A stretch of DNA of 10,560 nt. It comes from a virus (taxonomy: Duplodnaviria; Heunggongvirae; Uroviricota; Caudoviricetes). A program made the position numbers and the translations under genes. The stretch lies in the IMG/VR virus record IMGVR_UViG_2734482784_000004. The stretch is one strand, 5' to 3'. Numbering within the stretch: position 1 is the first letter of the stretch; the number at the start of each line of letters is the position of its first letter. This document shows positions 2,122-6,356 of the stretch, piece after piece. The notes under the pieces are model-generated. The model did not search any database. It was not told where the DNA came from and worked only from the letters and a program-made list of their open reading frames with translations.

Positions 2122-2151
2122 ATTCTATTCCGGCACCGTCCAGAACTTCAA
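2122..2151 (-). promoter_or_regulatory. Candidate sigma70 promoter for the rem-like gene (-35 TTGAAG, 18-nt spacer, -10 TAGAAT on the minus strand)
   Basis: Hexamers read from the reverse complement of 2122..2151, located just downstream of the hok terminator and about 70 nt upstream of the rem-like start codon. Confidence 0.25.
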
Positions 2152-2159
2152 ACGCGTTG

Positions 2160-2191
2160 AAAATAAAAACAAAAACCCGCCGAAGCGGGTT
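2160..2191 (-). terminator. Rho-independent terminator downstream of hokD
   Basis: On the minus strand, ACCCGC-ttcg-GCGGGT hairpin followed by TTTTTGTTTTTATTTT (complement of 2160..2191). Confidence 0.6.
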
Positions 2192-2259
2192 AAGTGCGGG
2201 TGCGTTGAGGATGCCTGCCACATCAGAGGTGGCGAGGGATTTCTCCCTCGCCGGGTCTC

Positions 2260-2415
2260 TTACTCCTCAGGTTCGTAAGCTGTGAAGACAGCGACCTCCG
2301 TCTGGCCGGTTCGGATTCGTACCTCGCAGAGGTCTTTCCTCGTTACCAGTGCCGTCACTATGACGGTTAAACAGATGACGATCAGGGCGATTAACATCGC
2401 CTTTTGCTGCTTCAT
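2260..2415 (-). CDS. hokD: Hok-family type I toxin (HokD/RelF-like, 51 aa)
   Basis: Translation from the internal ATG at 2413..2415 is MKQQKAMLIALIVICLTVIVTALVTRKDLCEVRIRTGQTEVAVFTAYEPEE, which matches HokD/RelF as I remember it. AAGGAG lies 9 nt upstream. A GC-rich hairpin (2231..2252, GGCGAGGGA-tttc-TCCCTCGCC) follows the stop codon and the terminator lies further downstream. Confidence 0.9.
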   Translation of the reverse strand: MKQQKAMLIALIVICLTVIVTALVTRKDLCEVRIRTGQTEVAVFTAYEPEE

Positions 2416-2672
2416 AGCCTGCTTCTCCTTGCCTTTCGGCACGTAAGAGGCTAACCTACATGTGTCTAGCATGAAATTGGCCTCAGATTAATGTTAAGCG
2501 TCTTGCAGGACGCGTAATGTTAACTGGGGCTTTTCTCTACCTGCCGTTGGTGTTCGTGCCCGAGGCAGATAGCCTCAAGCACCCGCAGTCATTCTACTTA
2601 ACTAAGATTTCCCCGCAAACCGTTTTGTCCAGCACAGTAAATATCCAACTAAACCAATGGAGTTCGCTGTAT

Positions 2673-2852: not shown

Positions 2853-3215
2853 TATTCCCCCTACAATCAATGTGCAATAACATTTAAACACACCTCAATT
2901 TAGCCGGACATATAAATATCTAAACCAGAAAAAATCACTTACATAGCGTTACAAACTCTTTAGTCTAAATATTCATCGTAAAACATTCCCCATACTTATC
3001 AGCCCGTTCTGCGCCAGGTAGCTCATTGCCTTATCTGGGAACCTGTAATCAGGTTTCCGGATGCTGGTGGATTTTCGCGTTTTAGTTGTTCATAAAAGTG
3101 CACAGCTTTAACCAGTTCTTCTGATGTAACCGGGACTGGCGGGGCAGTGAATAAGGCCTGAATTTCATAGTTCGGCCTATCGTTACAATCCTCTTTTTTC
3201 GGTACATATTTCCAG

Positions 3216-3338
3216 TCACCAGACCACTACTTCCCCTGAAAGTCCGTAACGCCTTTTTTTCACGTAGCGATATCGCCATGCCACTGTTTTTGCTTGCCCC
3301 GCCGTTTCATGCCCTTCCTGATAATTAACCTCGCTCAT
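3216..3338 (-). CDS. Hypothetical 40-aa basic peptide, start overlapping the stop of the upstream 58-aa ORF (ATGA)
   Basis: ATG at 3336..3338 overlaps the TGA at 3335..3337 of the upstream ORF. Translation MSEVNYQEGHETAGQAKTVAWRYRYVKKRRYGLSGEVVVW. Below the ORF-track length cutoff and competes with a different-frame 65-aa ORF at 3082..3279. Confidence 0.25.
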   Translation of the reverse strand: MSEVNYQEGHETAGQAKTVAWRYRYVKKRRYGLSGEVVVW

Positions 3339-3511
3339 TCATCGCCCCACTCATCACAATATGCTTCGACCGGAGTTTTTCCTGCTTCATAATCATCACG
3401 CCATGCTTCAGCATCAGCAGCACTGCTACCACGTAACTCTGCATAGTCCATTAACAGTTCATGCCATTCTTCAAAACCGACGTTGTATTTAGTTGAACCA
3501 AAATCAGCCAT
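3335..3511 (-). CDS. Hypothetical small acidic protein (58 aa)
   Basis: ATG at 3509..3511 preceded by GAAGAGGAAG about 6 to 8 nt upstream. Translation MADFGSTKYNVGFEEWHELLMDYAELRGSSAADAEAWRDDYEAGKTPVEAYCDEWGDE is strongly acidic with a protein-like composition. Not in the ORF track because it is under 60 aa. Confidence 0.45.
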   Translation of the reverse strand: MADFGSTKYNVGFEEWHELLMDYAELRGSSAADAEAWRDDYEAGKTPVEAYCDEWGDE

Positions 3512-3548
3512 TTTGTTCTTCCTCTTCGTCTTTTATTTCGTGATATGA

Positions 3549-3686
3549 TTAATTGCAGTAGTTAAAGAAAATATCTTTTGCTTCGTCATGTATTTCATCA
3601 GGCGTCGCATCATTATCCACTTCGAATTCATCCTCGAAATCTCCACCGGCTATTCCCGTTTCAATAATTATTTTAAACTTTCGCAT
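3549..3686 (-). CDS. Hypothetical small acidic protein (45 aa)
   Basis: ATG at 3684..3686, TAA at 3549..3551. Translation MRKFKIIIETGIAGGDFEDEFEVDNDATPDEIHDEAKDIFFNYCN. AGGAGG lies upstream but is separated from the ATG by a GC hairpin (3698..3715). Confidence 0.3.
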   Translation of the reverse strand: MRKFKIIIETGIAGGDFEDEFEVDNDATPDEIHDEAKDIFFNYCN

Positions 3687-4193: not shown

Positions 4194-4616
4194 TCACAGT
4201 ACCGCCTCCTGAAAATTACCCTGATAGAAAGCCAGTACACGCTGCATAGCTTCACTCTTCCGGCACTCGCGACAGATTATGTTTAGACGACTGTCGTAGC
4301 GACGTATTTCTCCATCAGGTAACGACCAGATAAGGTCCGGATCAACCACAGCTGTTTTCTTCACCTTTGCCCTCGAGAGTTTTTTGCGGGCGTTTTGCCA
4401 GTCCTTACGCGCCTGTTCAGACGGGAATAACCCGTAGCCGGAGTTGTATACATCGCCACTGGCTACCAGCTCTCTGGCAAGAACGCTCATCAGATATCTA
4501 GTCGCACCTGTTTTAGCTTCCAGTTGCCGTAACGTCTCACGACCGCTCTGGCGCACGAGTTCCACCACCTGCCCTTTAATTTTTTCCCGCTCTTCTTGTG
4601 TAAAAACTTTTGCCAC
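4194..4616 (-). CDS. Hypothetical 140-aa protein, possible regulator
   Basis: GTG start at 4614..4616 preceded by AAGGGGGA with a 3 to 4-nt spacer; TGA at 4194..4196. Basic and soluble, with a helix-rich N-terminus (RETLRQLEAKTGATRYLMSVLAREL) that could be HTH-like. No family confidently recognised. Confidence 0.65.
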   Translation of the reverse strand: MAKVFTQEEREKIKGQVVELVRQSGRETLRQLEAKTGATRYLMSVLARELVASGDVYNSGYGLFPSEQARKDWQNARKKLSRAKVKKTAVVDPDLIWSLPDGEIRRYDSRLNIICRECRKSEAMQRVLAFYQGNFQEAVL

Positions 4617-4656
4617 AAGTCCCCCTTAAAATTACCTCATGACCTGAAATCAAAAC

Positions 4657-4785
4657 TTATCCTCTGAAACCAGGCGGAATTTCTGTATCCGGTTCAGAAA
4701 TATGATTAACACAACGCTGTACAGGTGAACGCCCCAGGCGGATGACCAGTTCGTCCCATTTTTCGCGGAGCTTTGACGGGCTCAT
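4657..4785 (-). CDS. Possible 42-aa upstream ORF
   Basis: ATG at 4783..4785, TAA at 4657..4659, translation MSPSKLREKWDELVIRLGRSPVQRCVNHISEPDTEIPPGFRG. Weak ribosome-binding site; lies in the divergent intergenic region and may be non-coding. Confidence 0.2.
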   Translation of the reverse strand: MSPSKLREKWDELVIRLGRSPVQRCVNHISEPDTEIPPGFRG

Positions 4786-4942
4786 GATGTTTTTTACCCA
4801 GAATGGATCCCGCTGTATGTGGCGTGTTCCCCAACCAGGACGGTACGTTCACCGCGATGACATATACCAAAAGCAAAACGTTTAAAACCGAATCTGGCGC
4901 GCGTTGCTGGTTAGCCAGAAACACTGACTGATGAGGCTGACG

Positions 4943-5308
4943 ATGGAATTTAAAGATTTACCGTCTGATGTACAGAAAACAGCAGCTCATACATTGCATT
5001 CTGTGCTGCGAGAAATCGGGAAAGATATTGCAAGCGAGCCAGCAAAAGATCTGGCCCGGAAAATCAAGACCGCTTTCGTTGAGCTTTATAATGTTGGCAC
5101 TGACTCTGAAACTGTCGAGACCAAGACCGTAAGTTCACCAATATTCTCACTTGAGCCAGGCGTATTAGCAGGTGAAATATGCACCGAGATTTCCAGCGAA
5201 CTGCTTCCGGTAATACGAGAAGCAATTTGCCGTCGCGGTTTGGATGGAAGTTACGATCATGACGTCCTGCAAGTTCTCAGGACAATGGTGACTTCACTGG
5301 GGATTTGA
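4943..5308 (+). CDS. Hypothetical acidic protein (121 aa)
   Basis: ATG at 4943 preceded by GAGG (4933..4936) with a 6-nt spacer; the ORF-track start at 4931 lacks an RBS. TGA at 5306..5308. No motif recognised. Confidence 0.6.
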   Translation: MEFKDLPSDVQKTAAHTLHSVLREIGKDIASEPAKDLARKIKTAFVELYNVGTDSETVETKTVSSPIFSLEPGVLAGEICTEISSELLPVIREAICRRGLDGSYDHDVLQVLRTMVTSLGI

Positions 5309-5477
5309 TCCCTGCGTCCTCTAACCTTTTGATATAGCGGTCCTCCAAGAAGCGGTAAATTTTGTCGAAATCATCTTTCCCCTCTGGTTTATTCAGAGGA
5401 TTACAGGACCCGTAAGTAGCGGCATACATTTCAACCGTTTTATCAAAAATATAAGAGACAAATTCTTCTTTAGTCAT
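5277..5477 (-). CDS. Hypothetical 66-aa protein, convergent with and overlapping the 121-aa gene
   Basis: ATG at 5475..5477 preceded by AGAAGGAA with a 7-nt spacer; TGA at 5277..5279. The longer ORF-track form from 5564 has a low-complexity N-terminus and no RBS. The 3' end overlaps 4943..5308 by 32 nt. Confidence 0.45.
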   Translation of the reverse strand: MTKEEFVSYIFDKTVEMYAATYGSCNPLNKPEGKDDFDKIYRFLEDRYIKRLEDAGIKSPVKSPLS

Positions 5478-5752
5478 ATAGATTTCCTTCTTGGTTATTC
5501 GGGATAAGAAGGATACCACCTCGCCTGACGTGGTTAAAAGCAGGCACACAACACGAAAGCGCACGGCGAAGTTCGTCTCACTGTACGGTGTCGTTAAATT
5601 TAATTCGACCGTGCGCTTCCGGTTGTGGCAACCCGCGAAATGGCGCGGCGGTAAGTATGGCGGGGTTATTCCTTCCCCGTTGAGGACACCGAGTTGTCAG
5701 GTTGACCATACGCTTAAGTGACAACCCCGCTGCAACGCCCTCTGTTATCAAT

Positions 5753-5810
5753 TTTCTGGTGACGTTTGGCGGTATCAGTTTTACTCCGTGACTGCTCTGC
5801 CGCCGTTTTT
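5753..5810 (+). ncRNA. dicF: DicF small regulatory RNA (ftsZ-targeting, Hfq-dependent)
   Basis: Sequence TTTCTGGTGACGTTTGGCGGTATCAGTTTTACTCCGTGACTGCTCTGCCGCC followed by GTTTTT matches DicF as I remember it, including the GGCGG/CCGCC terminator stem and U-tail. It lies immediately upstream of dicB, as in Qin. Confidence 0.85.
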
Positions 5811-5979
5811 AAAGTGAATTTTGTGATGCGGTGAATGCGGCTAAGCGCACGCGGAACAGTTAAAACCAAAAACAGTGTTATGGGTGGATTCTCTGTATCC
5901 GGCGTTAATTGTTAACTGGTTAACGTCACCTGGAGGCACCAGGCACTGCATCACAAAATTCATTGTTGAGGACGCGATA

Positions 5980-6168
5980 ATGAAAACGTTATTACCAAAC
6001 GTTAATACGTCTGAAGGTTGTTTTGAAATTGGTGTCACTATCAGTAACCCTGTATTTACTGAAGATGCCATTAACAAGAGAAAACAAGAACGGGAGCTAT
6101 TAAATAAAATATGCATTGTTTCAATGCTGGCTCGTTTACGTCTGATGCCAAAAGGATGTGCACAATGA
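5980..6168 (+). CDS. dicB: Cell-division inhibitor DicB (62 aa)
   Basis: ATG at 5980 preceded by GAGGA with a 7-nt spacer. Translation MKTLLPNVNTSEGCFEIGVTISNPVFTEDAINKRKQERELLNKICIVSMLARLRLMPKGCAQ corresponds to K-12 DicB from memory. The ORF-track 97-aa form is an in-frame upstream extension. Confidence 0.9.
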   Translation: MKTLLPNVNTSEGCFEIGVTISNPVFTEDAINKRKQERELLNKICIVSMLARLRLMPKGCAQ

Positions 6169-6356
6169 ATTCAGCATTTGCGCTTGTTCTGACAGTTTTT
6201 CTTGTTTCCGGAGAGCCAGTTGATATTGCAGTCAGTGTTCACAAGACAATGCAGGAGTGTATGACTGCAGCAACCGAACAGAAAATTCCCGGTAACTGTT
6301 ACCCGGTCGATAAAGTTATTCACCAGGATAATATCGAAATCCCGGCAGGTCTTTAA
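6165..6356 (+). CDS. ydfD: YdfD-like small lysis protein (63 aa)
   Basis: ATG at 6165 overlaps the dicB TGA (ATGA at 6165..6168). Translation MNSAFALVLTVFLVSGEPVDIAVSVHKTMQECMTAATEQKIPGNCYPVDKVIHQDNIEIPAGL has a hydrophobic N-terminus and fits Qin YdfD in length, position and sequence as recalled. Confidence 0.85.
   Translation: MNSAFALVLTVFLVSGEPVDIAVSVHKTMQECMTAATEQKIPGNCYPVDKVIHQDNIEIPAGL

Follow-up and report, generated by a model that had tools for sequence, protein, structure and literature searches.

Within a 10,560-nucleotide stretch of viral DNA (IMG/VR record IMGVR_UViG_2734482784_000004; hereafter the window), whose gene content is that of a 10.5-kb defective lambdoid prophage of the Qin/mEp460 type, two small genes run toward each other and share their 3' ends. 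We refer to them here as A and B. Gene A (121 aa; positions 4943-5308, plus strand) begins with the ATG at 4943 and ends with the TGA at 5306-5308, and its ribosome-binding site (GAGG, 4933-4936) lies six nucleotides before the start codon. Gene B (66 aa; 5277-5477, minus strand) begins with the ATG at 5477-5475, ends with the stop codon at 5279-5277, and is preceded at a distance of about 7 nt by the Shine-Dalgarno sequence AAGGAA (5484-5489, minus strand), which is conserved in the upstream alignment. The overlap spans 32 bp on both strands (5277-5308), where the plus strand encodes a protein ending in RTMVTSLGI and the minus strand one ending in SPVKSPLS. A sequence-only reading of this DNA had proposed such a convergent pair; its coordinates are exact, and the overlap is kept in relatives.

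Two coding genes that share their 3' ends

Because the window holds 91 open reading frames (ORFs) of at least 40 aa, an ORF by itself is weak evidence of a gene. That both A and B are genuine, as the earlier reading had held, is borne out by their ribosome-binding sites, annotation by the Prokaryotic Genome Annotation Pipeline (PGAP), PHROG matches, conserved homologs, and purifying selection outside the overlap. PGAP annotates A and B in 385-392 of 5,426 complete Escherichia coli genomes as coding sequences for hypothetical proteins (A, WP_023281935 and WP_001320327 in RefSeq; B, WP_000159335), and both are annotated in the viable phage mEp460_ev081 (LR597641; locus L004 in our comparisons). 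The A protein matches phrog_33007 (4.1e-82, residues 1-121 of 121) and the B protein matches phrog_34441 (1.5e-50, residues 1-66 of 66), both listed by PHROG as of unknown function. The window proteins are full-length members of these families or identical to the RefSeq sequences, and the PHROG and RefSeq entries record no function, overlap, cassette, or shared element. The start of A chosen by PGAP is the one at 4943, and the conserved N-terminus reads MEF. An alternative start at ATG 4931 would give a protein of 125 aa and overlaps the stop codon of the preceding ydfA-like ORF as TGATG (4929-4933), which suggests that the two could be translationally coupled.

A conservation analysis of the kind that had been proposed as a check, including ratios of nonsynonymous to synonymous substitution rates (dN/dS), places both genes under purifying selection (dN/dS about 0.1-0.4). 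For codons 1-55 of B, which lie outside the overlap, dN/dS is 0.11-0.28 in 10 pairs from five close lineages (Nei-Gojobori). With the same method, pairs of close lineages with enough substitutions give 0.07-0.43 for the N-terminal 50 codons of A and 0.18-0.56 for its codons 51-78. The related loci L007 and L008 differ from each other with ratios of about 0.2 for B and about 0.25 for A. In comparison with a more diverged homolog from a Cedecea prophage (L005), the proportions of differing synonymous (pS) and nonsynonymous (pN) sites are 0.77 (saturated) and 0.15 for B, and 0.86 (saturated) and 0.20 for the C-terminal domain of A outside the overlap. Homologs of B at 89, 88, 73, 57, and 54% identity all have 65-66 aa, and one at 42% identity has 73 aa. 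Homologs of A with 23-33% identity over the C-terminal domain retain both its length and the convergent overlap.

The two proteins are predicted by AlphaFold2 to be small and helical. B is modeled as a hairpin of two helices (residues 3-22 and 31-54; predicted local distance difference test [pLDDT] score 82.8), followed by a low-confidence tail of residues 55-66 that is encoded within the overlap. The model of A consists of an N-terminal helical hairpin (residues 1-50; 4943-5092, plus strand), a disordered linker (about residues 51-86, with pLDDT below 50 for residues 53-86), and, at the C-terminus, a second helical hairpin (about residues 79-121; 5177-5305, plus strand) that is co-inherited with B. 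Its helices span residues 8-25, 32-50, 88-98, and 104-119. Both proteins appear to be soluble. A is acidic, with a highest 19-residue Kyte-Doolittle mean of 1.18; B is mildly acidic (pI 5.3) and has no transmembrane segment, with a corresponding value of 0.31.

Dual coding leaves the expected trace in the overlap. In the last ten codons of A (5276-5305, essentially the overlap), pS falls to 0-0.35, compared with 0.86-0.94 just outside, as is predicted when the same bases serve a second reading frame. An alignment of the overlap from 8 lineages contains an 18-nt near-invariant core (5285-5302; ATGGTGACTTCACTGGGG, consensus ATGGYRAYTTCACTRGGG), which persists between lineages whose proteins are only 57% identical. 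Among close relatives, a trough of variation extends over 5213-5332, with 8 of 120 alignment columns variable and none in 5251-5302, while most 30-nt windows in the flanks have roughly 25-45% variable columns. The trough is wider than the 32 bp that are dual coded, so dual coding appears to account for only part of it.

No intrinsic terminator was predicted between or after A and B in the window, in L005, or in L007. A hairpin at the stop codon of B (5264-5283) lacks a U-tract and is not kept in L007 and L008. Folding of the minus-strand RNA from 5130-5300 gives a z score of -2.45, and that of the plus-strand RNA from 5260-5420 gives 0.13. Because no terminator separates the genes, their mRNAs would be complementary if both are transcribed, as the sequence-only reading had anticipated; the complementarity follows necessarily, and only transcription itself is conditional.

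This arrangement invites comparison with lambda OOP RNA, a transcript from beside the immunity region that converges on the early lytic gene cII and is complementary to its 3' end. By analogy, the B ORF might be untranslated, and its transcript might serve only as a cis-antisense RNA that damps leaky early expression. The geometry is like that of OOP and cII, the cassette of the Cedecea prophage even lies between cro and a cII-like gene, and the strongest nucleotide conservation is centered on the overlap. However, the substitution pattern in codons 1-55 of B, outside any overlap, and in the comparison with Cedecea is that of a protein, and its length, its strong Shine-Dalgarno sequence, and a confidently predicted fold are kept or present as well. 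In contrast to OOP RNA, the antisense partner here is a conserved coding gene under purifying selection, and it has no sequence or Rfam relationship to OOP. A purely noncoding antisense role for B is therefore disfavored, and we consider it highly improbable.

The sequence-only reading had also likened the pair to toxin-antitoxin (TA) modules. For instance, A might be toxic as an early host-killing protein and B its constitutive neutralizer, or, as in type I systems, a toxin mRNA might be silenced by the antisense transcript. The two small genes are indeed co-inherited and always adjacent, a genuine type I locus (hokD/sok) is present elsewhere in the same prophage, and convergent 3' overlap is also how certain type I systems are arranged, txpA/RatA and bsrG/SR4 among them. 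Against this, searches of Pfam, NCBIfam, and PADLOC gave no significant match of A or B to a toxin, antitoxin, or defense family. A type II system would be expected to have a co-directional bicistronic operon and a known family or a DNA-binding antitoxin domain, and neither is found. Likewise, a 3'-overlapping type I system would be expected to have a hydrophobic toxin peptide and a noncoding antisense RNA as antitoxin. Hydrophobic segments are absent from both proteins, B accumulates substitutions as a protein does and not as an RNA, and an Rfam search of 4800-5850 at a permissive threshold returned DicF alone. In addition, B is interrupted by IS1 in some loci without obvious consequence, which is weak evidence since A is also missing in at least one of them (L074). 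The TA comparison is thus unsupported by any of the criteria examined, and we regard a TA-like module as quite unlikely.

The IS1 insertions lie after codon 15 of B in L073 (4046 onward) and L074 (2002 onward). No homology to A or to the remainder of B was detected in L074, and the L073 sequence stops inside IS1. These truncated copies were rejected as alternative cassettes because they are IS1 insertions.

Profile searches with A and B against the Protein Data Bank yielded nothing below an E value of 0.1, and neither protein matches helix-turn-helix, Cro, CI, or Apl families. Our literature searches found no mention of the RefSeq accessions of A and B or of ECs_2282, a family that is introduced below, and a keyword search listed no title or abstract describing this convergent overlapping arrangement.

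A cassette beside the immunity switch

Comparison with distant relatives goes beyond what had been noted from the window alone, in that the heritable unit is not the two whole genes. It comprises the C-terminal helical hairpin of A (about 45 aa), B, and the roughly 60 bp that precede B. At the DNA level, the window and the Cedecea prophage are homologous only over 5186-5499, which covers the C-terminal domain, B, and the B leader. In Cedecea, the domain is a stand-alone ORF (MGKEQVILTGELTIEIAGEVLPVIREAIRRKGLEGDYDH...) with its own ribosome-binding site, convergent with B, and loss of a stop codon has lengthened the overlap to 197 bp.

The pair is kept in five lineages: the E. coli type; the type represented by L009, L016, and L071; Cedecea L005; L007 and L008; and, more loosely, L075. 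The overlap measures 32 bp in the E. coli type and in L009, L016, L069, and L071, and 56 bp in L007 and L008. In L075, which carries the most distant homolog of B, the gene converges with the small first gene of an early-left operon, with a 35-bp overlap. Among approximately 170 loci examined, none was found in which an intact B lacks a small ORF that converges on it and overlaps it. A search of 1.84 billion representative sequences for homologs returned only 13 hits, which marks the family as very narrow. Scans of metagenomes and of GTDB found no further lineage, and a profile search with the C-terminal domain of A alone returned nothing.

The N-terminal hairpin of A has a different distribution. 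It is widespread, occurs with other C-termini, and is also found in Stx2a phages, in each case without B. Gene A thus has the appearance of a fusion in which a common N-terminal domain of early genes was joined to the small sense gene of the cassette, and the relaxed, disordered linker fits such an origin. In some relatives, the other C-termini on this N-terminal domain are also overlapped tail to tail by unrelated backward ORFs. Two Serratia loci (L011 and L012, 4001-4791) have an annotated 81-aa backward gene with a 26-bp overlap as well as a Cys-rich 63-aa backward gene, and Enterobacter kobei (L010, 3989-4469) has a 76-aa backward ORF, not called as a gene, with a 131-bp overlap. We considered whether these might be allelic cassettes of a C-terminus and a backward gene, as in polymorphic toxins, and rejected the idea because the backward ORFs are mutually unrelated and one is not called as a gene.

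In all six genomic contexts examined, the cassette adjoins the immunity switch, and its sense partner is oriented with the early lytic promoter while B points against it. It follows dicA-ydfA in mEp460_ev081 (L004) and in L096, directly follows an S24 repressor gene in L007, L008, and L009, and follows another repressor gene in L075. In Cedecea (L005), it lies within the pR operon. A near-consensus pL-like promoter sequence precedes the sense gene closely in L007 (TTGACT-16-TAATAT) and L075 (TTGACA-17-TAATAT), with 9-10 of 12 hexamer positions matching. The Qin prophage of E. coli K-12 instead has ydfB-ydfC in place of the module at 4923-5535 and retains the region only from 5536 onward. Phages that are homologous elsewhere thus differ at this site in having either the cassette or other genes, a polymorphism characteristic of morons.

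These comparisons bear on whether the juxtaposition of A and B is incidental, such that mosaic recombination brought functionally unrelated genes side by side and the overlap reflects compaction with no regulatory or physical coupling. As noted above, the N-terminal domain of A is common with other C-termini and without B. Moreover, the promoter-like element described in the next section carries two other backward genes that have no overlapping partner, and the partner of B in L075 shows no significant homology to the C-terminal domain (hhalign E value of 0.28). However, the C-terminal domain and B moved jointly to a pR operon in Cedecea with their sense and antisense orientation preserved, the convergent overlap is retained in all five lineages, and no intact B lacks such a partner. 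An incidental arrangement therefore strikes us as doubtful, though it deserves more weight than a TA-like module. Because the C-terminal domain of A is co-inherited with B, a relationship at the protein level is suggested, in which the two proteins would act on each other or on one target.

A promoter-like element upstream of B and a model for the pair

Upstream of B lies a candidate sigma-70 promoter (5510-5538, minus strand), composed of a -10 hexamer TATCCT (5515-5510) that is extended by TG (5518-5517) to TGgTATCCT, a 17-nt spacer, and a weak -35 hexamer TTTAAC (5538-5533). The predicted transcription start is near 5503, which would give a leader of about 25 nt. The call rests on conservation and geometry. 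The sequence GGTGGTATCCTT is invariant even in the lineage of L007 and L008, at 57% identity, where the flanks have diverged, and the full conserved motif reads CCAC..TCAGGC..GGTGGTATCCTT. The spacer also contains an inverted repeat, ACCAC (5516-5520)-N9-GTGGT (5530-5534), that is conserved with the promoter. It could be an operator or, on the plus strand, an RNA hairpin of the dicF precursor.

A 35-nt element that overlaps this region (5511-5545), and that the sequence-only reading had missed, is common to prophages that carry different backward genes. It is matched in approximately 2,030 of the 5,426 complete E. coli genomes, and B is present in only 392 of those. In 118 IMG/VR loci that contain the element exactly, the gene behind it encodes a 106-aa hydrophobic protein in 56 cases, a member of the ECs_2282 family in 34, and B in 24. 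All three alternative genes lie on the minus strand, each with its own Shine-Dalgarno sequence and with its ATG 32-34 nt from TATCCT. By comparison, such sharing argues well, though short of proof that the promoter is active, for a fixed backward promoter behind which accessory genes are exchanged.

The two alternative genes have distinct characteristics. The 106-aa protein (MSQPPINPLKNMKIDYWYK...), which is probably a membrane protein, is encoded at 2147-2467 (minus strand) of L094 from E. coli strain 190. It has no Pfam, PHROG, or NCBIfam match and no RefSeq annotation at the L094 locus, where a plus-strand 'ydfB' ORF runs antisense through its gene. The 66-aa ECs_2282-family protein, a CxxC zinc ribbon (NF047912, 1e-15), is encoded at 2267-2467 (minus strand) of L095 from E. 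coli O157:H7 TR01, and its gene there comes after a relBE pair that is an insertion in the early-left operon. Similarity of the protein to Lar restriction-alleviation proteins is weak and below threshold.

We propose that A and B form an accessory cassette of two genes that heads the early lytic operon in Qin/mEp460-like and other lambdoid prophages, which is the explanation we favor, with a probability of about 0.5. B would be an independent backward transcription unit driven by its own extended -10 promoter (TGgTATCCT, 5510-5518) and, in the manner of a moron, would be expressed from the prophage while the early promoter (dicBp, pL, or pR) is repressed. A would be read from the early promoter, and its C-terminal helical hairpin would be the cognate partner that travels with B. 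Given the convergent overlap without a terminator, firing of the early promoter should silence B while making A. Specifically, a strong early promoter firing at induction would switch B off through polymerase collision and through fully complementary antisense RNA. B would then be made in the lysogen and A during lytic growth.

Several findings weigh against this account. First, a consensus scan did not flag the B promoter, since its -35 hexamer matches at only 3 of 6 positions. Second, conservation of the 35-nt element could have another cause, either a place in the plus-strand dicF precursor or a role as a boundary for recombination. Third, the model of A is of low confidence overall (pLDDT 58), and both proteins are acidic, such that no charge complementarity between them is obvious. 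Fourth, the 63-aa partner of B in L075 has no detectable homology to the C-terminal domain of A. Finally, there is no detectable terminator after B, in contrast to classical morons, where one is present.

In other respects, the proposed cassette resembles morons, the autonomous accessory transcription units of lambdoid prophages (a concept of Hendrix and Juhala). B is a small gene that is present or absent at a fixed site between homologous phages (as the K-12 Qin prophage illustrates), it has its own promoter-like element and an orientation independent of the surrounding operon, and alternative genes occupy the same site. Unlike morons, B overlaps part of an early gene on the sense strand and is inherited together with that part.

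Coliphages 186 and P2 have lysis/lysogeny switches in which convergent promoters act by transcriptional interference. The layout here is similar in that promoters predicted from sequence stand face to face beside a repressor gene, one lytic and pL-like (L007 and L075) and the other presumably active in the lysogen. However, these promoters are about 0.5-0.6 kb apart rather than tens of base pairs, no family test identifies B as a repressor, and neither product matches the families of lysis/lysogeny regulators. Furthermore, phages can do without the cassette, it is exchanged among phages whose repressors differ (DicA type or S24 type), and the lytic promoter is deleted in this window.

An analogy can also be drawn with immunity genes on the opposite strand of pore-forming colicin operons and with exclusion and escape by SieB/Esc of P22 and lambda, where a small constitutive gene lies backward or independently within an inducible operon. 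In these cases as in ours, the inducible gene would carry the cognate determinant, and variation in its C-terminal domain goes along with variation in the small gene. The likeness is one of layout only, because there is no homology and B is soluble rather than a membrane protein.

A more specific version of the cassette model is speculative, and we hold it to be improbable in its entirety. In this version, A and B would form an exclusion-and-escape or lysogeny-lock pair, and the 35-nt element would represent a backward promoter site not described before. In the resting prophage, B would be produced and would block either a host process or some early stage in the development of a phage. At induction, the early protein A would neutralize B, with its matching hairpin forming a four-helix bundle, and convergent transcription would simultaneously clear the B mRNA. 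The element would then mark a site at which small effectors expressed in the lysogen are swapped, namely, B, the 106-aa hydrophobic protein, and the ECs_2282-family zinc ribbon.

If these proposals are correct, a backward promoter site exists in the Qin/mEp460-like prophages of more than one-third of complete E. coli genomes. The dicBF region, which is known for cell-division inhibition and phage resistance, would hold a fixed backward promoter with interchangeable lysogen proteins, one of which (B) is paired with an early lytic partner through a conserved gene overlap. The pair would also be a compact case of reciprocal lysogenic and lytic expression from convergent coding genes. The three uncharacterized small proteins are candidates for phage-exclusion or host-modulation phenotypes. 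If the reading fails, A and B are correctly annotated hypothetical prophage genes that merely overlap.

The operon in this window and its surroundings

Downstream of the pair on the plus strand are the small RNA DicF (5754-5805; Rfam RF00039, 72.5 bits) and then dicB, ydfD, a large exonuclease gene, xis, and int. DicF is processed from a polycistronic mRNA that starts at dicBp, as described in a paper that covers dicBp, DicA, Rem, and mEp460_ev081 and does not mention the A and B genes (PMC10448788). In intact relatives, DicF is a product of the same early-left transcript as A. The sequence-only reading correctly placed B antisense to this operon, whose transcription in intact relatives must pass through B to reach dicF and dicB. 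Its description of a dicF-dicB operon was accurate for the genes downstream, but dicA, dicC, dicBp, and the 5' end of ydfA are all missing here.

The loss is explained by comparison with mEp460_ev081, which has the gene order of the window with dicC, dicA, and ydfA intact. By blastn, window positions 4212-4817 correspond to 3035-3641 of that phage (L004), and the window from 4815 onward corresponds to 5873 onward. Approximately 2.2 kb has therefore been lost (L004 3641-5873), with the junction near 4815 (about 4813-4817, in the interval 4617-4931). Lost with it are ydaT, dicC, and dicA, the last of which encodes the repressor, as well as dicBp, the promoter of the operon, and the initial codons of ydfA. 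What remains is a chimeric, truncated ydfA-like (DUF1391) ORF of 42 aa (4803-4931, plus strand) that matches phrog_751 over residues 5-42. Many E. coli genomes (represented by L001 and L002) have another left flank with the same right-hand junction, which joins a dicC fragment to a ydfA fragment. This suggests that the right-hand junction in ydfA is a recurrent breakpoint.

Because dicBp is deleted, the plus-strand operon of the window is without its native promoter, and a simple consensus scan of 4500-6200 predicted no plus-strand promoter. Transcriptional interference, which had been suggested for the pair from its arrangement, is plausible from the geometry, but with the plus-strand promoter gone, it cannot work in this window as described. 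For the same reason, only B is likely to be expressed here.

The dicBF operon also differs between E. coli strains K-12 and B. In contrast to K-12, which has ydfB-ydfC, the B-strain derivative NEBExpress, a laboratory background in common use, has the A/B cassette. This locus (L096, 3039-5192) combines the cassette with intact dicC, dicA, ydfA, dicB, and ydfD and adjoins rspB.

Upstream of the pair, the window has a DUF977 gene followed by the truncated ydfA-like ORF and then A and B. The prophage also carries a fragment of a Q-like antiterminator gene, a DUF968 gene, and rem. The hokD/sok type I TA locus (2260-2584, minus strand; Rfam sok, 107.8 bits) encodes a genuine antisense-regulated toxin and lies 2.7 kb away from the A/B pair within the same prophage.

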